A stretch of DNA of 64,000 bases from a virus. Positions within the stretch are counted from its first letter, which is position 1; the number at the start of each line of letters is the position of its first letter. Of the stretch, positions 11,876 to 29,243 are shown piece after piece. The stretch covers positions 1 to 64,000 of the IMG/VR virus record IMGVR_UViG_3300027971_000031. The stretch is one strand, 5' to 3'. Made by a program: the position numbers and the translations under genes. The notes under the pieces are model-generated. The model saw nothing but the letters and a program-made list of their open reading frames with translations. It was not told the DNA's origin and made no database searches.

Positions 11876-12580
11876 TTAATTACCCTTCTTTTTTGTTTTA
11901 ACAATCTCGTCAATAATTCCGTATTCAAGAGCCTCGTCAGCACTCAACCACAAATCACGAGTAGCATCTAAAGTAACTTGTTCGGTAGTTTTACCACAAT
12001 AAGAACCCAACAAATCAAAAAGAATTTTATTGGTTTTTTCCCATTCAATCATATTGATACGAGCATCTTGGATATTACCGTAAGCTCCACCTGATGATTG
12101 GTGTAACATTGTCTTAGAGAAACGTAATGATGAACGTTTACCCTTCGTTCCAGCTCCTAACAACACTGAACCCATTGATGCTGCCATACCTGTATTTACG
12201 GTACGAATGTCACAGGAAATGTATTCCATAACATCGACCATAGATAGACCTGATTTAACACTTCCTCCTGGTGAGTCAATGTGCATTGTGATGTCTGATT
12301 TATCACTTGAGTCCAAGAACATTAATTGTGCTTGTACGATTGTTGACATGTGGTCATCAACAGGACCTGCAACCCACAACAATCTGTCTCTCATTAATCT
12401 TGAGAAGATATCCATTTGAGTCGCCCTCATCTCCCTTTCCTCCAAAATATATGGAGTCATAGATGATTGGATTTGGTGTGAGAAATAATCCAAATGTGAA
12501 GATGGTTTCCCTAAGTGTTTTGTGTAATAAGCTTGAAATTCTTTTCCGTAGTCCATGTTTAATATTTTAGTGTGGTACAA
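11876..12580 (-). CDS. clpP: ATP-dependent Clp protease proteolytic subunit
   Basis: MDIFSRLMRDR, IDSPGGSV, GMAASMG (catalytic Ser), MLHQ, RDLWLSADEALEYGIID. Confidence 0.97.
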   Translation of the reverse strand: MYHTKILNMDYGKEFQAYYTKHLGKPSSHLDYFSHQIQSSMTPYILEEREMRATQMDIFSRLMRDRLLWVAGPVDDHMSTIVQAQLMFLDSSDKSDITMHIDSPGGSVKSGLSMVDVMEYISCDIRTVNTGMAASMGSVLLGAGTKGKRSSLRFSKTMLHQSSGGAYGNIQDARINMIEWEKTNKILFDLLGSYCGKTTEQVTLDATRDLWLSADEALEYGIIDEIVKTKKKGN

Positions 12581-12971: not shown

Positions 12972-13460
12972 TCAATAAACAAAGGATTCTTGATATTCTG
13001 TCCAAGCTTTGTTTAAGGTTGCATTGTCGTTCATGATGGATGGGACATAAGGTTTATGTTTCATAACCATCTTTGCTTCCTCAGGTGTTTTATTACCTTT
13101 TTTCAAGTTACACTTAAAACAACAAGTCACCAAGTTAGTCCATTCATTAAGTCCTCCACGAGATTTAGGAATAACGTGGTCCAAGGTTAATTGTTTGTTT
13201 GAACCGCAATATACACATTCGTAGTTATCTCGTTTATAAATCCTGTTTCGATTAACCTTTGTTGTTTTTCTGTTGAACTTGATATAACTTAATAATCGAA
13301 TGATTAATGGACGCACGTATGTTGTAAATCCAACATTAATTGGATTCTCATCAGATTTTATAATTTCCGCCTTACCCTTATCGACAAGTACGAAACCCCT
13401 CCTTGTTGAAGTTAAGTTCAAAGGAGTGTAGTCATAGTTTAATACTAATACATTACTCAT
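12972..13460 (-). CDS. HNH endonuclease
   Basis: RDNYECVYCG...LTLDHVIPKSRGG...NLVTCCFKCNLKK. Confidence 0.93.
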   Translation of the reverse strand: MSNVLVLNYDYTPLNLTSTRRGFVLVDKGKAEIIKSDENPINVGFTTYVRPLIIRLLSYIKFNRKTTKVNRNRIYKRDNYECVYCGSNKQLTLDHVIPKSRGGLNEWTNLVTCCFKCNLKKGNKTPEEAKMVMKHKPYVPSIMNDNATLNKAWTEYQESFVY

Positions 13461-14169: not shown

Positions 14170-14580
14170 ATGAAAAAAAGAATATATTTGGATGACGTAA
14201 GGACTCCTATTGAAAAAGACAATTGGGTTATTGTTCGTTCTTATGACGAATTTGTTGAGAATATAAATGAAATCGGATTGGAAAACATCGATATGATTTC
14301 TTTGGACCATGATTTGGGTGATACTGCAATGGCAGAATGGCACAAAAATGTATATAAAAATTACGAGTTGAACTACGATAACATCACCGAAAAAACTGGT
14401 ATGGATTGTGCGAAATGGTTGGTTGAGCAATGGATGGATGGGAAACCTGTTGTTGATGTGGTTGTTCACTCTGCAAATGCGATTGGTAGTGGAAATATGA
14501 TGGGTTACATCAACAATTACCGTCATATTGCTCGATTACCTCAAAATTGTATCAGAGTCCGAATCGAGCATACCGTGTAA
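14170..14580 (+). CDS. cyclic-phosphate-processing receiver-domain protein
   Basis: IYLDDVRTP, ISLDHDLG, TGMDCAKWL, VHSANAIG motifs. Confidence 0.8.
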   Translation: MKKRIYLDDVRTPIEKDNWVIVRSYDEFVENINEIGLENIDMISLDHDLGDTAMAEWHKNVYKNYELNYDNITEKTGMDCAKWLVEQWMDGKPVVDVVVHSANAIGSGNMMGYINNYRHIARLPQNCIRVRIEHTV

Positions 14581-14793: not shown

Positions 14794-14867
14794 GGACCCT
14801 TAGCTCAGCTGGTCAGAGCAGGTCACTCATAATGACAAGGTCACAGGTTCAAACCCTGTAGGGTCCA
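14794..14867 (+). tRNA. tRNA with CAT anticodon, probably Ile2 (lysidine type)
   Basis: GGACCCT/AGGGTCC-A acceptor, loop CTCATAA, resembles ileX-type tRNAs. Confidence 0.85.
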
Positions 14868-15537: not shown

Positions 15538-15583
15538 GATTGATTTTTTGACTTTTAGAACTATTTATACTATAATTACAACA

Positions 15584-15667
15584 ATGAAAAATTTGAATAC
15601 ACTTACAGCAACTTTAGCACCGACGAATGGCGGGGATAGAGATATGTGCTCAAGTGTTCAGATTTAA
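15584..15667 (+). CDS. leader peptide 1, MKNLNTLTATLAPTNGGDRDMCSSVQI (putative attenuator uORF)
   Basis: 27-aa ORF after TATTTATA (15562-15569) and TTGACT-N17-TATAAT (15548-15576); codons 3-20 match the tRNAs of the downstream block. Confidence 0.85.
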   Translation: MKNLNTLTATLAPTNGGDRDMCSSVQI

Positions 15668-15726
15668 TCAAAGGTAATAAAGCCAAAAATGATAAACCCT
15701 GAACACAAAATGTTCAGGGTTTTTTG
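15654..15726 (+). promoter_or_regulatory. attenuator 1: anti-terminator plus intrinsic terminator
   Basis: terminator aaaccctgaaca(15694-705)/tgttcagggttt(15711-722) plus T-run; gtgttcag(15654-661) is complementary to ctgaacac(15699-706). Confidence 0.85.
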
Positions 15727-15745
15727 TTTTATAAGGATTTTTTAT

Positions 15746-15767
15746 TATCTTTGTAGTGTTCTTTGAC
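15746..15767 (+). promoter_or_regulatory. Bacteroidetes-type -7 promoter element followed by boxA-like sequence
   Basis: TATCTTTG 15746-53 with TTTG at 15723-26; TGTTCTTTGAC 15757-67. Confidence 0.65.
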
Positions 15768-15785: not shown

Positions 15786-15862
15786 CGAGATGTTGGGGAG
15801 TCAGGTTACCCCGCCTGCTTTGGGAGCAGGAGAACTCGCAAGTTCGAATCTTGCCATCTCGA
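15786..15862 (+). tRNA. tRNA-Pro(TGG)
   Basis: cloverleaf; stem cctgc/gcagg, loop TTTGGGA. Confidence 0.93.
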
Positions 15863-15869
15863 CGATTAC

Positions 15870-15941
15870 GTCTTCTTAGCTCAGTGGTAGAGCACTTGGC
15901 TGTTAACCAAGTGGTCCATGGTTCGAATCCATGAGGGGACG
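15870..15941 (+). tRNA. tRNA-Asn(GTT)
   Basis: cloverleaf; loop CTGTTAA. Confidence 0.93.
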
Positions 15942-15993
15942 CAAAGGGTCTGAGGGAGTCCCTAAAACGGATAAATAACGTGTCCCTCTCCAT

Positions 15994-16069
15994 GCGAGAG
16001 TAGCTCAGTCGGTAGAGCTTCAGTTTACCAAACTGAAAGTCGCCAGTTCGAATCTGGTCTCTCGCTCCA
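15994..16069 (+). tRNA. tRNA-Gly(ACC), unusual A34 anticodon
   Basis: GCGAGAG/CTCTCGC-T-CCA glycine-type acceptor; stem tcagt/actga, loop TTACCAA. Confidence 0.88.
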
Positions 16070-16071
16070 TT

Positions 16072-16146
16072 GCGGGTATCGCCTAGTTGGTTATGGCATC
16101 ACACTTCCAATGTGAAATAGGGTCGGTTCGAGACCGACTACCCGCT
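16072..16146 (+). tRNA. tRNA-Gly(TCC)
   Basis: cloverleaf; loop CTTCCAA, U73. Confidence 0.93.
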
Positions 16147-16148
16147 CA

Positions 16149-16515
16149 ATGAGTAAGAGATACTCAGTAGTTTTGGTACCGTTACTGATAAATGGTATAG
16201 CTGAGGCCTCTAACAGCTTAATAGATGAGGTCGTCGGAAAAAAGGCAAGAACACCATCTTGACCTCCGAGTATATGGTTGACTTTTAAGCGGTAAGACGC
16301 GATGGGTTTTGAATCAGGAAAACTATGAATATCTACTCATCATAATCTCATGGTGGGAAATGTGAGAGTAATCGGTCGAGCTACATTTAGCCGTTAATCA
16401 CAATATTGGTTTGGAAACAGAGGTAGCCGTGACTTTTCCAACCGAGCCAACCAAGCTTACTATGATACGGGTTAATACCTGTGGATTAGAGGTGACGGTC
16501 AGGAAAGACTGACAA
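16149..16515 (+). ncRNA. unassigned structured RNA region between tRNAs
   Basis: no long ORF, raised GC, several hairpins; atgagta (16149) can pair with tactcat (ending 16340). Confidence 0.45.
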
Positions 16516-16519
16516 TTTC

Positions 16520-16595
16520 GGTCTCATGGTTGAATGGCTACAATTCCACCCTGTCACGGTGCGAGGTACGGGTTCGAATCCCGTTGGGACCGCCA
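16520..16595 (+). tRNA. tRNA-Asp(GTC)
   Basis: loop CTGTCAC, G73, encoded CCA. Confidence 0.9.
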
Positions 16596-16600
16596 AAATT

Positions 16601-16674
16601 GCCTCCTTAGCTCAGCTGGCTAGAGCAGATGATTTGTAATCATCAGGTCGTGGGTTCGAATCCCTCAGGAGGCT
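16601..16674 (+). tRNA. tRNA-Thr(TGT)
   Basis: stem gatga/tcatc, loop TTTGTAA. Confidence 0.93.
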
Positions 16675-16691
16675 CAAAAGTTTTTTAATAA

Positions 16692-16781
16692 TATGAAATA
16701 TAACGATTTTAAATTTGAACGAAAAATATGTATTGGGTTTGTTCTCATAATTTTTGGACTTATTATTTTATTAATAAGTTG
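16692..16781 (+). CDS. 29-aa single-TM microprotein
   Basis: MKYNDFKFERKICIGFVLIIFGLIILLIS read by hand. Confidence 0.4.
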
Positions 16782-16797
16782 ACAATACAATTTAAAA

Positions 16798-16872
16798 GGG
16801 GTTAAATGTACCAAGGCTTGGCGAGAAACACTTGCAATGTTTCTGAGGTGGGTTCGATTCCCACTAGCTCCA
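16798..16872 (+). tRNA. tRNA-Ala(TGC)
   Basis: G3:U70 pair, loop CTTGCAA; atypical D-arm. Confidence 0.85.
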
Positions 16873-16884
16873 CAAAATAAAATT

Positions 16885-17232
16885 ATGGCACATCCAAACT
16901 TACACGCAAAAAGTTCTGCAAAGAAATTCGGTGGAAAACCTGAAGATTATATTCATTTACACGAATGGTTGGATGAAACCAAAGGTTGGATTGGTGATTC
17001 ATTACACAGGATGTTCCGACACCATAGTGAAGGAATCTTTGAAATGGAAAAACGATTTGGTCCTGAATTTAAAAATAGTGATGGAAAAATTGTTTATACT
17101 CGTTATGTTGGAGAACAACATGTAAGGGAAGATTGTAATAATTACCTTCCATCCGCAAAAGAATGGATTACCAATATCTCAGAAAATAAACGACCTCAGT
17201 GGATGTTAAGGACCATGAACATAGAAGACTGA
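16885..17232 (+). CDS. DUF6915-like protein
   Basis: MAHPNLHAKSSAKKFGG...HRMFRHHSEGIF...VGEQHVREDC; ATG at 16885 (ORF-track start lies inside tRNA-Ala). Confidence 0.7.
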   Translation: MAHPNLHAKSSAKKFGGKPEDYIHLHEWLDETKGWIGDSLHRMFRHHSEGIFEMEKRFGPEFKNSDGKIVYTRYVGEQHVREDCNNYLPSAKEWITNISENKRPQWMLRTMNIED

Positions 17233-17243
17233 TATTTATTAAC

Positions 17244-17960
17244 ATGAAACAAATTTTAACACCAGAAGAGAAACAATACCTTAGAAGAACATCAAATTAT
17301 CTTCAATCTATGGGTATGAGACAAGGATATATAGAAATAGAGCTTGAACAAGAAGCTGGCTCAATTGATTACGATAATATTGACTGGAAGTATGTAAGTC
17401 ATTTTTCAAATAACTATAGTGCCGATATTCCTGAAGGATTATTACCAATATTAAAAAAAGTTGTTAAGTATGCAGATTCTTTAGACAATTTAAATAATGA
17501 TATTGATAATTTAAGTTATCAAAGAATTGAAATTAGAATCGATTCTTTTCAAAAAGAAATCTCCGTAAACCATGAATTTTTTTATTATGGACGAGGTGAA
17601 GAAAATTCAATTGATTATGACTCTAAAGAAGATATGGAACAATTTGACCGATGGATGGATAATGATTTAAAAGAAGTTGAAGTTCCATCTGACGGTAAAT
17701 TAAGATTAGATTATGATGGTGGTGGTGATTCAGGATATATTCATAACGAATTTCAACCAACGGGAGATGCGGTACCAGCGGGAATTGAAGATTGGTGTTA
17801 CCAACAACTTGAACGTCATTTTGGTGGTTGGGAAATCAATGAAGGTTCTGATGGGTCATTCATATTTGATTTCAAAAATTCAGTCGTTACTTTGAGTCAT
17901 ACATACAACACCGAAGAACATGAAAGTGATACTTTATATGAAGAAAGTTTTGACAAGTAA
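17244..17960 (+). CDS. DUF6878-like protein
   Basis: YDGGGDSG...GGWEINEGSDG motif; ATG 17244 after TATTTATT. Confidence 0.65.
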   Translation: MKQILTPEEKQYLRRTSNYLQSMGMRQGYIEIELEQEAGSIDYDNIDWKYVSHFSNNYSADIPEGLLPILKKVVKYADSLDNLNNDIDNLSYQRIEIRIDSFQKEISVNHEFFYYGRGEENSIDYDSKEDMEQFDRWMDNDLKEVEVPSDGKLRLDYDGGGDSGYIHNEFQPTGDAVPAGIEDWCYQQLERHFGGWEINEGSDGSFIFDFKNSVVTLSHTYNTEEHESDTLYEESFDK

Positions 17961-18010
17961 GTTGTATCTTTAAAAAAAATCAATTATATTTGTACCATAG
18001 TAAAATAAAT

Positions 18011-18098
18011 GCTCGGGTGGTGGAATAGGTAGACACGCCAGACTTAAAATCTTGTGGGCCTTGCGCCCGTGCGGGTTCGATTCCCGCTCCGAGTACCA
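18011..18098 (+). tRNA. tRNA-Leu(TAA)
   Basis: long variable arm, loop CTTAAAA, encoded CCA. Confidence 0.93.
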
Positions 18099-18103
18099 AA
18101 TTT

Positions 18104-18177
18104 GCCCTTGTAGCTCAGCAGGATAGAGCAACGGTTTTCTAAACCGTAGGTCACAGGTTCGAATCCTGTCGGGGGTA
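18104..18177 (+). tRNA. tRNA-Arg(TCT)
   Basis: stem acggt/accgt, loop TTTCTAA. Confidence 0.93.
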
Positions 18178-18180
18178 CAA

Positions 18181-18277
18181 TATATCATATCCTCAGGTAC
18201 CCGTACAGCAGTGAGACGGGCTAAGTTAGATACAATTCCTCGGAGCTGGGAGTAGAATGCCTGTACGATGTGATATA
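18181..18277 (+). ncRNA. unassigned structured RNA (~97 nt)
   Basis: tatatcatatc/gatgtgatata closing stem; caggta/tgcctg and cccgt/acggg inner helices. Confidence 0.6.
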
Positions 18278-18280
18278 AAT

Positions 18281-18361
18281 GCCTTGGTGGTGGAATGGTA
18301 GACACGTATGTCTTAGAAACATATGTCTTATGACGTGAGGGTTCGAGTCCCTCCTAGGGTA
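18281..18361 (+). tRNA. tRNA-Leu(TAG)
   Basis: stem tatgt/acata, loop CTTAGAA, variable arm. Confidence 0.92.
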
Positions 18362-18363
18362 CT

Positions 18364-18551: not shown

Positions 18552-18653
18552 ATGAGAACAACAATGGTCCATATTTCGTCGTTTAAGCAACAAGAGATTT
18601 GTAGCTGGTATCGCTATGTGGAAAATTGTAGTTCGGAAAATATGGTAAAATAA
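18552..18653 (+). CDS. leader peptide 2, MRTTMVHISSFKQQEICSWYRYVENCSSENMVK (putative attenuator uORF)
   Basis: 33-aa ORF; codons 5-24 match the tRNAs of the downstream block. Confidence 0.85.
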   Translation: MRTTMVHISSFKQQEICSWYRYVENCSSENMVK

Positions 18654-18715
18654 CAAGTTAGAAATAACAATAGGTTAAACCCCGAACTTCTAAAAAAAGT
18701 TTGGGGTTTTTTTTT
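18630..18715 (+). promoter_or_regulatory. attenuator 2: anti-terminator plus intrinsic terminator
   Basis: terminator aaaccccgaactt(18677-689)/aagtttggggttt(18697-709) plus T-run; agttcgg(18630-636) is complementary to ccgaact(18682-688). Confidence 0.85.
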
Positions 18716-20169: not shown

Positions 20170-20247
20170 AGTCAGGTGGCGGAACGGATAGACGCAACCA
20201 CGTAAGTGGTCAAACCGGTATTACAGGTTCGAATCCTGTCCTGACTA
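20170..20247 (+). ncRNA. tRNA-like element C (anticodon loop replaced by GTAA tetraloop)
   Basis: same acceptor, D- and T-arm as element B; accac-GTAA-gtggt hairpin. Confidence 0.75.
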
Positions 20248-20371
20248 CAAACCTCAGGATTAATTACCCTGAGACTGAGAGGTTCGAAACTCTTGATTGG
20301 TTATAGTGTATGGGGCACGGCAGAACGTAGTAGGGACGCAGGAGTAGGGTTCAAATCCTTATTAATCAGCA

Positions 20372-20611: not shown

Positions 20612-20708
20612 AAAGTGTTCACAACGGACAAGGCTTAGGCTCAAAGTATGGGCGAGAACTTACCTATATTCCCTGAGGTGGGTAGCGAGTGGTTGACCAG
20701 AACACTTT
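20612..20708 (+). ncRNA. unassigned structured RNA (~97 nt)
   Basis: aaagtgttc/gaacacttt closing stem around a GC-rich core. Confidence 0.5.
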
Positions 20709-20756
20709 TTTTTCTTATAATGTGGTAGTTTTCCTAACCAACACATATTTATATGT

Positions 20757-21101
20757 ATGGAAAAGAAAAACAAAAGAGGTGGTGGAAATAGATTAGCATA
20801 TGAAAACGGACTTCAACAATATGTTAAATCTATTAGATTGACAAACGAAGAAGTTTTTATTGAAAATTCAACGTATGCGAGACATCACATTAAAAGAAGA
20901 ATTATTGAAGAAAATATGGTTGATTACAAATGTGATGAGTGTGGTAATCTTGGTATTTGGAATAATAATCCATTACCATTAATTTTAGACCACATAAATG
21001 GCATAAATAACGATAACAGATTAGAAAATCTAAGATTCGTTTGTAGTAACTGTGATTCCCAATTACCAACCTATAAGAATAGAAGAGGTAGTAAAGGGTA
21101 A
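20757..21101 (+). CDS. HNH endonuclease inserted in the tRNA array
   Basis: CDECG...LDHINGINNDNRLENLRFVCSNC. Confidence 0.92.
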   Translation: MEKKNKRGGGNRLAYENGLQQYVKSIRLTNEEVFIENSTYARHHIKRRIIEENMVDYKCDECGNLGIWNNNPLPLILDHINGINNDNRLENLRFVCSNCDSQLPTYKNRRGSKG

Positions 21102-21932: not shown

Positions 21933-22406
21933 ATGGAAAAAAGAGTAACACTAACAAAAGAACAATTATTTAAAGTAATACAGTTAAATGAGCAGGAAAA
22001 CAAAAAAGAGACTGTTGATGATGTTGTTGAAGATGGAAATATTGTTGATATGATTTCAATATTACTTCATTCAAGAAGTCAGGCCCATATATTTCATTGG
22101 CAAACAAAATCACAATCATCATTTGCTGAACATATGGCGTTAGGTGGATATTATGAAGAAATTGGAGAATTAATAGACGGAATTGTTGAAGGTTACCAAG
22201 GTAAAAACGATTTGTTAACAGGTTATAAAACGATTAAAATGGTTGATTATAAATCAACAGAACAACTAATAACTTACTTTAAAGGATTAGATGATAATAT
22301 TGAAAAAAATAGAAAGGCGGTCAAAGAATCTTATATTCAAAACCAAATTGATACAATTCAAGAATTAATTTATAGTACATTATATAAATTGAGATTCTTA
22401 AAATAA
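21933..22406 (+). CDS. Dps/ferritin-like protein (DUF5856-like)
   Basis: QAHIFHWQT...FAEHMALGGYYE..IDGIVEGYQG...TLYKLRFLK; ATG 21933 after TATTTATA. Confidence 0.75.
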   Translation: MEKRVTLTKEQLFKVIQLNEQENKKETVDDVVEDGNIVDMISILLHSRSQAHIFHWQTKSQSSFAEHMALGGYYEEIGELIDGIVEGYQGKNDLLTGYKTIKMVDYKSTEQLITYFKGLDDNIEKNRKAVKESYIQNQIDTIQELIYSTLYKLRFLK

Positions 22407-22430: not shown

Positions 22431-22466
22431 ATCCCTCTGAGTTTTAAGTTCAGGGGGATTTTTTTT
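22431..22466 (+). terminator. intrinsic terminator
   Basis: atccctctga/tcagggggat hairpin plus T-run. Confidence 0.75.
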
Positions 22467-26816: not shown

Positions 26817-26871
26817 AACGATAAATATATCGTAATAAAAAAAACCCCATCTTTCGATGAGGTTTTAGTTG

Positions 26872-27269
26872 TGGAGATAGGCGGATTCGAACCGCCGTCT
26901 TGCCCATCTTGACAATAAATGACTACACGCTTAGGTCAAGGTTTTTCATACCTTCCGAAATATCTGAATTCTCACACCGTTCAGTCACGGTGGTAGGACT
27001 TAAGGATGCCCTACACCCTGTTTGTTCCTTTTAAGATAGAAACCACATCTTACAAAGACTTCTGTTCCTGGGTTAATGTCTTTTCGACCCGATGGTTTTT
27101 CCTAATTGCTCAGGCTGTAACCGTAGCATCTTCACGAACTAATCCGATTGCTGCCATTTTGTTTAAAACGTTGCCGTTTAATTTTTATCTCCGTAGATTT
27201 AAGTGATAGGAAACTTCTCACTGCGTGCCACGTATCCCCAACTATGTCAATCGATACCAGTGTACCCCC
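26872..27269 (-). ncRNA. ssrA: tmRNA
   Basis: 5' GGGGGTACACTGGTATCGA; 3' GACGGCGGTTCGAATCCGCCTATCTCCA; G3:U70; internal tag ORF 27175-27110. Confidence 0.92.
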
Positions 27270-27288
27270 ATATTTTCAAAGAACATTA

Positions 27289-27369
27289 AAATCACTTTCG
27301 CCCCCTGTATAGACATAACGTCAGATGCTTAAGGTCAGCCTTAACTATTAAGGGAGCCACCCGTGATTT
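27289..27369 (-). ncRNA. unassigned structured RNA upstream of tmRNA
   Basis: aaatcac/gtgattt closing stem; lies between promoter (27376-83) and boxA (27273-85). Confidence 0.4.
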
Positions 27370-29243
27370 GTTATACAAAGATAAGTATAAATATGAATAT
27401 TCCAAACAGAATTGGTATTTATAGTAAAAAATATCCTGTGATTATAGTTGAAGGTAAAAAGGAAGATGTTGCGAAACGACTTAAACAAAGGTTTGAGTAT
27501 GATGGTCCATTCATAGACAGGATATTAAATGTCGACCCCACAAAATACAAGTACGTTGAATACATTGCGAAGAAACTTGAAAAAATTATACCTGAATTAG
27601 CGGGTGAAAGGGGTGGATTGAATGTTCAACAGGGAGAAGCTCTACAAGATTTATTTGGAACAATCATTCCTTGGTTCCATGCAAATGTTAATAGAATCAC
27701 TGAAGATGATGTTTGGACTGCTGAAACGGCATTTAGAAACGACATGAACAATAGTTATGTTGTACCAAATATTGAGGGGATTGCTCGTTCACCAAAAGAC
27801 ATCAATCAATATGAAAACCCACAATTCATTAAAAAGTTGATGAATACTATTGATGCAAGAAAAACTCAAAGGGAAATTGAAAGGGAGATTAAAACTCAAG
27901 CCGATAAGATTTATGAAGATAATGATGTCTTAGTTGTTAGGCCTAAATCACATGCGGCATCATGTTATTATGGTGCCAATACAAAATGGTGTACAACACA
28001 AACGGGAAACCCTGGTTATTTTGAAAAGTATTTCAGAGATGGAAACTTATATTATTTCTTAAATAAAAAAACCAATAATAAACTTGCACTATATCGAAAC
28101 AAAAGTCAAAGACAAACCGAAGTATATGATGCTCAGGACCGAAATATTTCTATAGAAATTTTAAGAGAATCGTTTCCAAATCAAATCGAACTTATTGACG
28201 ATTTACTTGGTATAGGTGAATTTATTAAAAAATTAAGAGAATTCTCAAAAGGTAAAATTGATTCCCGTGAATTGGAAGATTCTGATGATGCAATTCTTCA
28301 GGTTAAGGTTTCAGACATATTAGGTCAAAGTGCTATTGTAATTGATTTTGGCGATGATGAAAAATTCTTTAAAAATTTTGATGTAAGTGAAGATGATATG
28401 TGGTTCATGAACTCAATAAATTCAAGTTATAGCGATTATGAATTTATTGATTCTTATACTGTTGAAGAGGATTGGAAAGAAGGATATATTGTTTTTGGTG
28501 ATTTGAATGATGAAAATAATGAAAAATTAAAACAAATTGGAGAAATTTTAATATCATCAAAAGAGTTTAATTTAAATAGTGAGGAATATAGACAAGAGTT
28601 ATCGGCAACATTATTAGATTTATTTGAAAGGGAAATCGATAACATTCTTAGTGATTATTTTGTGGAAAAAAATAGAGAAATGAGTGTTACTGCCAGAGAA
28701 TCTATTGAAAAAGAAATTAACAACGTTTTAGAATCTGCAGGATTTACACTTAAAAGAAGCTACAATGAAATCGTGACAACACCGGCAAATCTACTAATGT
28801 GGTCTGCAAGACTTGGAATTAATAAAAGTGATGTTATTTCATTATTTAACCAAATTGTTGAAAACAATGGTGGTAGTATTGGTGGATGGGCTGAAGACCA
28901 ATATGAATATCAGGATTCTGATAATTTTGATAGTGATTCATTCAACAACGAAGTTGAAAGACAACTAGATTCAATTATTGAAAAATTAGATGAGGATGTA
29001 AATGTCACGGAGTTTTTGGAATTTAGAAAAAAAATATTATCTAAATATGATATAGGTAAGGTGTATGAATTACCAAAAGATAAATCATTAAAATTTAGAA
29101 TTAACAATTTTGACAAAGACAACATTCAAGTTGTTGTTGAAATAGGCGGACCAAAAGGAGTTATTACTCGTAAATTTAATGAAGAACAATTCAATAATTT
29201 ATTATATCAACCAGAATTATTTGATTTATTTGGTGAAGTGTAA
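27363..29243 (+). CDS. hypothetical protein, paralog of 25302-26816 (true start may be GTG ~27438)
   Basis: KDINQY and ASCYYGANTKWCTT motifs. Confidence 0.7.
   Translation: MICYTKISINMNIPNRIGIYSKKYPVIIVEGKKEDVAKRLKQRFEYDGPFIDRILNVDPTKYKYVEYIAKKLEKIIPELAGERGGLNVQQGEALQDLFGTIIPWFHANVNRITEDDVWTAETAFRNDMNNSYVVPNIEGIARSPKDINQYENPQFIKKLMNTIDARKTQREIEREIKTQADKIYEDNDVLVVRPKSHAASCYYGANTKWCTTQTGNPGYFEKYFRDGNLYYFLNKKTNNKLALYRNKSQRQTEVYDAQDRNISIEILRESFPNQIELIDDLLGIGEFIKKLREFSKGKIDSRELEDSDDAILQVKVSDILGQSAIVIDFGDDEKFFKNFDVSEDDMWFMNSINSSYSDYEFIDSYTVEEDWKEGYIVFGDLNDENNEKLKQIGEILISSKEFNLNSEEYRQELSATLLDLFEREIDNILSDYFVEKNREMSVTARESIEKEINNVLESAGFTLKRSYNEIVTTPANLLMWSARLGINKSDVISLFNQIVENNGGSIGGWAEDQYEYQDSDNFDSDSFNNEVERQLDSIIEKLDEDVNVTEFLEFRKKILSKYDIGKVYELPKDKSLKFRINNFDKDNIQVVVEIGGPKGVITRKFNEEQFNNLLYQPELFDLFGEV

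Follow-up and report, generated by a model that had tools for sequence, protein, structure and literature searches.

Why and when phages use the tRNA genes that they carry is debated, the explanations put forward being that they compensate for codon usage, take the place of host tRNAs that have been degraded, or allow the phage to evade anticodon nucleases. The DNA analyzed, hereafter "the window", comprises the first 64 kb (64,000 nucleotides) of a 107-kb IMG/VR virus record, which is estimated to be 36% complete; its G+C content is about 32%, and it contains 27 tRNA genes, located on the plus strand between positions 14794 and 22646, and one tmRNA gene on the minus strand. The first tRNA block (block 1, 15786-18362, plus strand) codes for tRNA-Pro, Asn, Gly(ACC), Gly(UCC), Asp, Thr, Ala, Leu(UAA), Arg(UCU) and Leu(UAG), and is preceded by a short ORF and a predicted terminator. 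This element, placed at the head of the tRNA operon of a giant phage, is probably a switch between terminator and anti-terminator that is operated by translation of a leader whose codons match the tRNAs; leader translation, termination, read-through and the share of the latter relative to a downstream promoter-like motif are the parts of this model that we infer. Two tRNA calls in the window have unusual features: the tRNA-Gly with anticodon ACC (15994-16069) has an A34, and the tRNA-like sequence called by ARAGORN at 20170-20248 has an undetermined two-base anticodon loop and the lowest Rfam score of the window tRNAs (39.6 bits).

The leader ORF (15584-15667, plus strand) starts with the ATG at 15584 and comprises 27 codons, followed by a TAA stop codon at 15665-67; its start context, ATGAAA without a Shine-Dalgarno sequence, is typical for genes of the source phage. 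Codons 3-20 (15590-15643), here called the sensing codons, encode without exception (18/18) Asn, Leu, Thr, Ala, Pro, Gly, Asp or Arg, which are exactly the eight amino acids of the ten block 1 tRNAs; under strict wobble, these tRNAs read 16 of the 18 codons. Such a run of 18 matched codons has a probability of P=5e-6; within the window, which has 295 small ORFs, no run is longer, and the next in length has nine codons. An initial annotation of this DNA had pointed to GC-rich leader codons that stand out in this genome: indeed, CCG, ACG, GGC and GGG are rare in their synonymous families (3-6%), representing 5%, 5%, 3% and 6% of synonymous codons, respectively, in the 44 long ORFs of the window. 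It had also correctly placed the stop codon at 15665-67 and the end of the last matched codon (codon 20) at 15643, 10 nt before position 15654, where the 5' strand of the putative anti-terminator begins.

The predicted terminator (15694-15722) has a 12-bp stem with five G-C pairs, followed by a T run, and a free energy of -16.9 kcal/mol. Its 5' arm (15694-15705), together with C15706 and an upstream extension (15690-96), forms segment 3 (15690-15706, plus strand), which is common to both alternative structures; its 3' arm (15711-22) and the following T run, TTTTTTGTTTT, represent segment 4 (15711-15730, plus strand). Segment 2, the 5' strand of the anti-terminator, spans 15654-15670 on the same strand, with a core at 15654-61 and an extension at 15663-70. 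The pairing originally proposed, between gtgttcag (15654-15661) and ctgaacac (15699-15706) in the terminator 5' arm, holds, since the two sequences are exact reverse complements at those coordinates; its suggested extension, tttaatca (15663-70) with tgataaa (15690-96), is reproduced, with one bulge, by RNAfold, which gives the 2:3 structure as the minimum-energy fold of 15648-15708 (-14.8 kcal/mol). The match exceeds chance expectation: when the 105 nt upstream were subjected to dinucleotide shuffles, about 0.1% of these contained an exact complement of at least 8 nt to the terminator arm.

Minimum-energy folds add a further hairpin, absent from the initial description, in which leader codons 3-7 (15589-15604, plus strand; segment 1) pair with 15652-15665, i.e., with segment 2, with an energy of -21.5 kcal/mol. 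Because this 1:2 hairpin is added to the 2:3 and 3:4 structures, the four-segment layout of classical attenuators is complete; the whole element folds below shuffles, with z = -5.5. The apex of the 1:2 hairpin is formed by a CCG...CGG mini-hairpin (15620-15633, plus strand), which bears the rarest leader codons CCG, ACG, GGC and GGG; it corresponds to invariant columns in all homologues of this element (attenuator 1, or att1) and is paired in all folds, and it could act as a pause signal, as a rare-codon cluster, or both. A paralogue of the same design, attenuator 2 (att2), is located at 18552-18709 on the plus strand, with its leader at 18552-18653, segment 2 at 18630-36 and terminator at 18677-18709, and the four-segment layout is also predicted for this second copy.

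The effect of ribosome position was modeled by masking a footprint from -15 to +14 relative to the first base of the A-site, a size taken from general knowledge, on the nascent RNA 15584-15710. The initial annotation had proposed that a ribosome stalled on the sensing codons would leave the anti-terminator free, and that one reaching the stop codon would cover it; the model agrees, since the 2:3 structure is predicted to be free with the A-site at codons 1-20 and to be removed from codon 21-22 to the stop. In particular, the summed probability of the eight 2:3 pairs is 7.9-8.0 of 8 at codons 1-14 and 18-19, and the helix is partly formed at codons 15, 16 and 17 (7.3, 5.9 and 4.3 of 8, respectively); the sum then drops to 6.0 (codon 20), 2.5 (codon 21) and finally 0, the value for all positions from codon 22 to the stop. 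The masking boundary coincides with codon 20, the last one drawn from the block 1 amino acids. In attenuator 2, the 2:3 structure is present for codons 1-22 and disappears from 23-24 onward, and the model predicts that with the ribosome at the stop codon the 1:2 hairpin re-forms behind it. Over seven leaders, operon-matching codons represent 137 of 150 in the zone where the anti-terminator is left free, versus 47 of 71 codons of the tail (p=1e-5). When no ribosome is included, the 2:3 structure is already the preferred one of the nascent RNA at equilibrium (5.3 of 8 pairs), and termination of the untranslated RNA is assumed to rest on a kinetic priority of the 1:2 hairpin.

The mechanism suggested by this arrangement would operate as follows. 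The transcript would begin just 5' of the ATG at 15584 and would encode the 27-codon leader, whose codons 3-20 would sample the eight block 1 amino acids. A ribosome slowed within these codons would keep segment 1 unpaired and leave segment 2 (15654-70) free to pair with segment 3 (15690-15706) once this is made; the terminator hairpin would then not form, and RNA polymerase would enter the tRNA-Pro gene and the rest of block 1. With fast decoding, the ribosome would reach codons 21-27 or the stop codon and cover segment 2, or would leave the RNA and allow the 1:2 hairpin to re-form; in either case the terminator would form and transcription would stop at the T run. The outcome would be a negative feedback of aminoacyl-tRNA supply on phage tRNA synthesis: when ribosomes read the matching codons slowly, the phage probably makes more of these tRNAs.

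Related elements were collected by two routes. The first, starting from an MGS-like gene located 300 nt upstream, led to 42 IMG/VR loci, 13 of them with a tRNA array; the second used a pattern consisting only of the T run and the downstream promoter-like motif, and provided 120 more stretches, 29 of which have a tRNA within 250 nt. From both routes, 26 distinct leader-terminator modules lying directly 5' of tRNA genes were obtained. Besides att1-like and att2-like modules, they comprise a "B" type, which heads blocks beginning Leu-Arg-Pro-Asn..., an "A" type, whose terminator sequence is unrelated and which heads Ala-Phe-Lys... blocks, and two more types in locus L110. Cultured phages gave no match for the attenuator region in a DNA search, nor for the large neighboring ORF in a protein search; the matches of the MGS-like gene itself, in records of Listeria, Enterococcus and faecal phages, were all distant (less than 50% identity) and of no value for synteny. 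An ORF of 25-38 codons is present in all 26 modules despite indels, and in all the att1 homologues a leader of 27-29 codons is retained despite both indels and a change of frame relative to segment 2. Conservation is seen in the ORF and its composition, against a background of diverging nucleotide sequence. The 1:2 pairing is predicted in att1, att2 and most relatives, with z = -2 to -4, and is not clear in L145 A, L145 B and L110 B.

The anti-terminator is also conserved. When duplex energies were calculated along the whole leader, the best partner of the terminator 5' arm was found between -22 and +9 nt of the leader stop codon in 24 of the 26 distinct modules; exact Watson-Crick matching alone overlooked anti-terminators containing one G-U pair, which the duplex energies recovered. 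Covariation was analyzed over 19 distinct sequences of the att1, att2 and B types, both homologues and paralogues, aligned from segment 2 to the T run. The 7-pair 2:3 helix is paired in 99.2% of the cells, compared with 93.4% for the terminator by the same count, and pairing falls to 13-52% when the partner is displaced by 1-3 columns; covariation scores 0.328, versus 0.158 in shuffles, none of 500 reaching 0.328. Two of the seven pairs are changed on both sides (U-A/A-U and G-C/A-U), in 16 cells, which, the compared sequences being related, correspond to few independent compensatory events, about 3 to 5 and not 16. An eighth pair, G15654-C15706, found here and in L005, is replaced by A-T in L006 and L012, and C15706 is a base of the terminator loop. 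In the A type, the tcccgagg/cctcggga pairing of L145 corresponds to tctcgagg/cctcgaga in L139, a double change that keeps the 2:3 structure perfect while the terminator stem takes a G-U pair. Since the eighth pair uses a loop base, and since the L145/L139 change spares the 2:3 structure at the expense of a G-U pair in the terminator, the 2:3 pairing appears to be selected for itself. The extension differs in sequence as well, yet it remains complementary (tttaatca/tgataaa here, tttaaat/atttaaa in L012). The complementarity noticed in a single sequence is therefore maintained, with compensatory changes, in related phages; together with the conserved 2:3 and 3:4 structures and the masking results, these changes argue for the mutually exclusive terminator and anti-terminator originally proposed.

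A further line of evidence comes from the match between leaders and operons. Each of the 13 amino acids of block 2 is represented in leader 2 (13/13), and, over seven pairs of leader and operon, the operon's own leader contains 81 of 82 operon amino acids (Fisher p=6e-14), every leader fitting its own operon best. The tRNA genes are partitioned differently in some relatives: L145 and L139 group the Ala, Thr and Asp tRNAs with those for Phe, Lys, Val and Trp, and the Tyr and Gln tRNAs with those for Leu, Arg, Pro and Asn, and in L110 the Asn and Pro tRNAs are grouped with those for Ser, Gln and Phe. The composition of the leaders tracks these altered partitions in L145, L139, L110 and L052. L005, L013 and L117 deviate from this fit: for some residues of their leaders, a matching tRNA gene was not found downstream. 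In L145 (minus strand as stored, at about 11559 in the orientation used), the second block ends with a tRNA with anticodon CTA, labeled Pyl by ARAGORN and possibly an amber suppressor; TAG is not among the codons of that block's leader.

How the leader is transcribed and translated has to be considered in the context of the source phage. A Shine-Dalgarno-like sequence precedes only two of the 44 long ORFs of the window (42 are without), and TATTTAT is found 3-15 nt 5' of the ATG, within 22 nt of the start, in about 15 of them, a position implying that very short or absent 5' leaders would be the rule in this phage. In addition, the TTTG-N17-21-TAnnTTTG motif has 15 matches in the window, against 5.0 expected. 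From the few Shine-Dalgarno sites, the TATTTAT sequences before ATGs and the excess of this motif, we infer a Bacteroidota-type host. The initial annotation had placed the leader behind two candidate promoter elements, and both strings are present: TATTTATA (P1; 15562-15569, plus strand) and TTGACT-N17-TATAAT (15548-15576, plus strand), an E. coli-type promoter with 11 of 12 matches. Only the former is conserved, as TAT(A)TTTATA, 5-8 nt 5' of the ATG in all att1 homologues. Because TTGACT-N17-TATAAT is absent from the relatives and the genes lack Shine-Dalgarno sequences, the TAT(A)TTTATA element is more likely to be the leader promoter; the role of TTGACT-N17-TATAAT as a promoter is doubtful, and E. 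coli-type matches of this kind number 33 in the region versus 35.4 in shuffles. An RNA starting from TAT(A)TTTATA would begin at the ATG or a few nt before it, and translation would thus be leaderless or nearly so.

A second promoter-like motif is located 3' of the terminator. It has the Bacteroidota-type form TTTG-N19-TATCTTTG (P2; 15723-15753, plus strand), overlaps the T run and ends with TATCTTTG at 15746-53; it is conserved in att1 homologues, with its first element inside the T run. It is followed by GTTCTTTGA (15758-15766, plus strand), a boxA-like motif that is likewise conserved in att1 homologues and has four copies in the window, three of which lie just 5' of stable-RNA genes, namely tRNA block 1, tRNA block 2 and the tmRNA gene. 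The last (26869-27269, minus strand) has the same head, TTTG-N19-TATCTTTG followed by GTTCTTTGA (27276-27406), without a leader or a terminator, which suggests that the two motifs may represent a standard stable-RNA promoter plus boxA-like module. Owing to the presence of P2-like and boxA-like motifs between the terminator and the tRNA-Pro gene, the attenuator need not be the sole route to tRNA transcription; likewise, as the same head is found on the tmRNA gene without an attenuator, the tRNAs may be made independently of read-through. The attenuator may add a regulated share to a constitutive tRNA transcription, or the two promoters may serve different times of infection.

These motifs bring in a first alternative, according to which the leader and its terminator are a separate small unit, coding for a peptide or a small RNA, the tRNAs derive only from the 15723-53 motif, and the 2:3 pairing is a by-product of two similar tandem hairpins, with segment 1 resembling segment 3 and segment 2 resembling segment 4. 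The conservation of the P2-like and boxA-like motifs 3' of the terminator, and their occurrence before a tmRNA gene devoid of attenuator, would fit this explanation, as would the resemblance between segments 1 and 3, which does exist in att1. It leaves unexplained, however, why the leader codons correspond to the downstream tRNA set and shift with it between lineages, and why the matched codons end where coverage of segment 2 begins. Moreover, the 2:3 pairing is kept by double changes in the L145/L139 type, where segments 1 and 3 are unlike, and some relatives have no space for a promoter after the terminator. Indeed, only 14-15 nt separate the end of the terminator stem from the tRNA-Ala gene in L145 A, L139 A and L134 A, too few for a promoter, in L110 A the T run directly adjoins the boxA-like motif, and no promoter-like motif is found between the terminator and the tRNA genes in L145 A, L139 A and L110 A; therefore, in these four modules, read-through is the only visible route. 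On balance, we regard a separate unit as improbable.

An alternative to which we give similarly little weight accepts a working attenuator, but considers it a gauge of general translation capacity or amino-acid starvation, and not of the shortage of individual tRNAs, the broad codon sample making it sensitive to any slowdown. In its favor, all 20 amino acids occur in the two leaders of the window taken together, and a stalled ribosome cannot distinguish a missing tRNA from missing charging; each leader, on the other hand, is restricted to the amino acids of its own block, and the partition moves with the genes. This restriction is explained by a block-specific feedback and not by a general gauge.

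A protein- or tRNA-binding, riboswitch-like leader, of the T-box or L10/ribosomal-protein-leader type, with an incidental ORF, could account for the strong structure (z = -5.5) and for the sub-threshold Rfam matches of several leaders, but it is very unlikely, given that no Rfam family reaches its gathering score, that the best match, Thr_leader (25.3 versus 55 bits), is itself a leader-peptide attenuator, that no T-box is matched, and that the ORF and its composition are conserved despite nucleotide divergence.

The Thr_leader match (RF00506; E = 0.0075, below the gathering threshold) extends over the full model at 15605-15728 and is an architectural resemblance, not membership; across the window, Rfam yielded nothing above the gathering threshold except tRNA and tmRNA, and the T-box model had no match at E up to 10. 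The closest known designs include the thr leader (Thr and Ile) and the ilvGMEDA leader (Ile, Leu and Val), which are multivalent enterobacterial attenuators of amino-acid operons, and the classical trp and his leaders. The phage element shares with them a short leader with regulatory codons, which here are predicted, the 1:2, 2:3 and 3:4 structures with a T run, and a stop codon placed so that a finishing ribosome masks segment 2; the energies of the trpL helices are of a size similar to the -21.5, -14.8 and -16.9 kcal/mol given above. Unlike these systems, which control biosynthetic enzymes, the phage element would control tRNAs, and, instead of runs of a single amino acid, the phage leaders sample eight (or 13) amino acids, mostly one to four times each. 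They also differ from the enterobacterial leaders in being phage-encoded, leaderless or nearly so, without a Shine-Dalgarno sequence, and with a promoter-like motif 3' of the terminator.

The E. coli pheST attenuator is a leader-peptide control of phenylalanyl-tRNA synthetase, which links decoding speed to the capacity for tRNA charging. As in pheST, attenuation would act here on a component of the decoding apparatus; pheST, however, is cellular and concerns a synthetase and one amino acid, whereas the target here would be the tRNA genes themselves. T-box riboswitches similarly use a terminator/anti-terminator switch to report the state of a specific tRNA to translation-related genes, but they bind uncharged tRNA directly, without a ribosome, whereas a conserved ORF is central here. 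The putative boxA-like GTTCTTTGA(C) recalls the boxA of rrn antitermination (NusB/NusE) in heading stable-RNA genes; unlike in that system, it is a separate element 3' of the attenuator. The literature was searched for leader peptides or attenuation in connection with phage tRNAs and tRNA operons; no publication describing such control of tRNA genes was found. The nearest published biology found is the trn operon of Anabaena sp. PCC 7120, a supernumerary, horizontally mobile, long tRNA array that is turned on when translation is impaired (PMC8421152). This array is controlled by a repressor acting at its promoter, and, unlike for the phage element, the papers describing it make no mention of a leader peptide, attenuation or a terminator (PMC8421152, PMC10272220).

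Extending the block-specific switch to the phage group is a step that we take with somewhat less assurance, although we lean toward it: these phages would possess a codon-resolved feedback on their own tRNA supply, in which each block is a regulon gated by a leader written in its own codons, and the tRNAs switched on would be precisely those whose decoding fails, for example after cleavage or turnover of the host tRNAs. If this is true, tRNA genes would for the first time be seen as targets of leader-peptide attenuation, and the partition of tRNA genes into blocks would represent a regulatory unit, which would explain why the blocks are fixed. As to the debated use of these genes, a sensor that activates them upon slow decoding of the matching codons would imply that tRNA supply is monitored during infection. 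The textbook mechanism would be extended to a new class of targets and to a Bacteroidota-type translation that is nearly leaderless and devoid of Shine-Dalgarno sequences. Such elements could also yield compact, programmable sensors of tRNA availability, with the leader as a simple readout in which each tRNA shortage would be addressed by one codon change.

Two other sites of the window were considered as candidates and rejected. The first was an ORF at 22291-22368, with a terminator, before the tRNA-Ile(UAU) gene; it is a different frame inside a real gene (21933-22406, DUF5856), to which that terminator belongs. This strong terminator (22431-22457), conserved in relatives, is 22 nt 5' of tRNA-Ile(UAU) (22480), which is accompanied by tRNA-Ser(GCU); as it ends the DUF5856 gene, the Ile(UAU) and Ser(GCU) tRNAs sit behind an ordinary terminator. 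The second was a promoter match at 20693-20721 (TTGACC-N17-TATAAT), which drives an HNH endonuclease gene (20757-21101) and not a leader. With a further gene at 12975-13460 (minus strand), HNH endonuclease genes are found both inside and beside the tRNA array. The region also includes ClpP (11879-12580, minus strand) and, just 5' of the tRNA array, an ORF at 14170-14580 (plus strand) with a match to the Pfam family cREC_REC, "cyclic-phosphate processing receiver domain" (E = 1e-22), a family tied to RNA-repair systems. The presence of this ORF, together with the tRNA array, the tmRNA gene and the attenuators, hints at a common theme of coping with tRNA damage.
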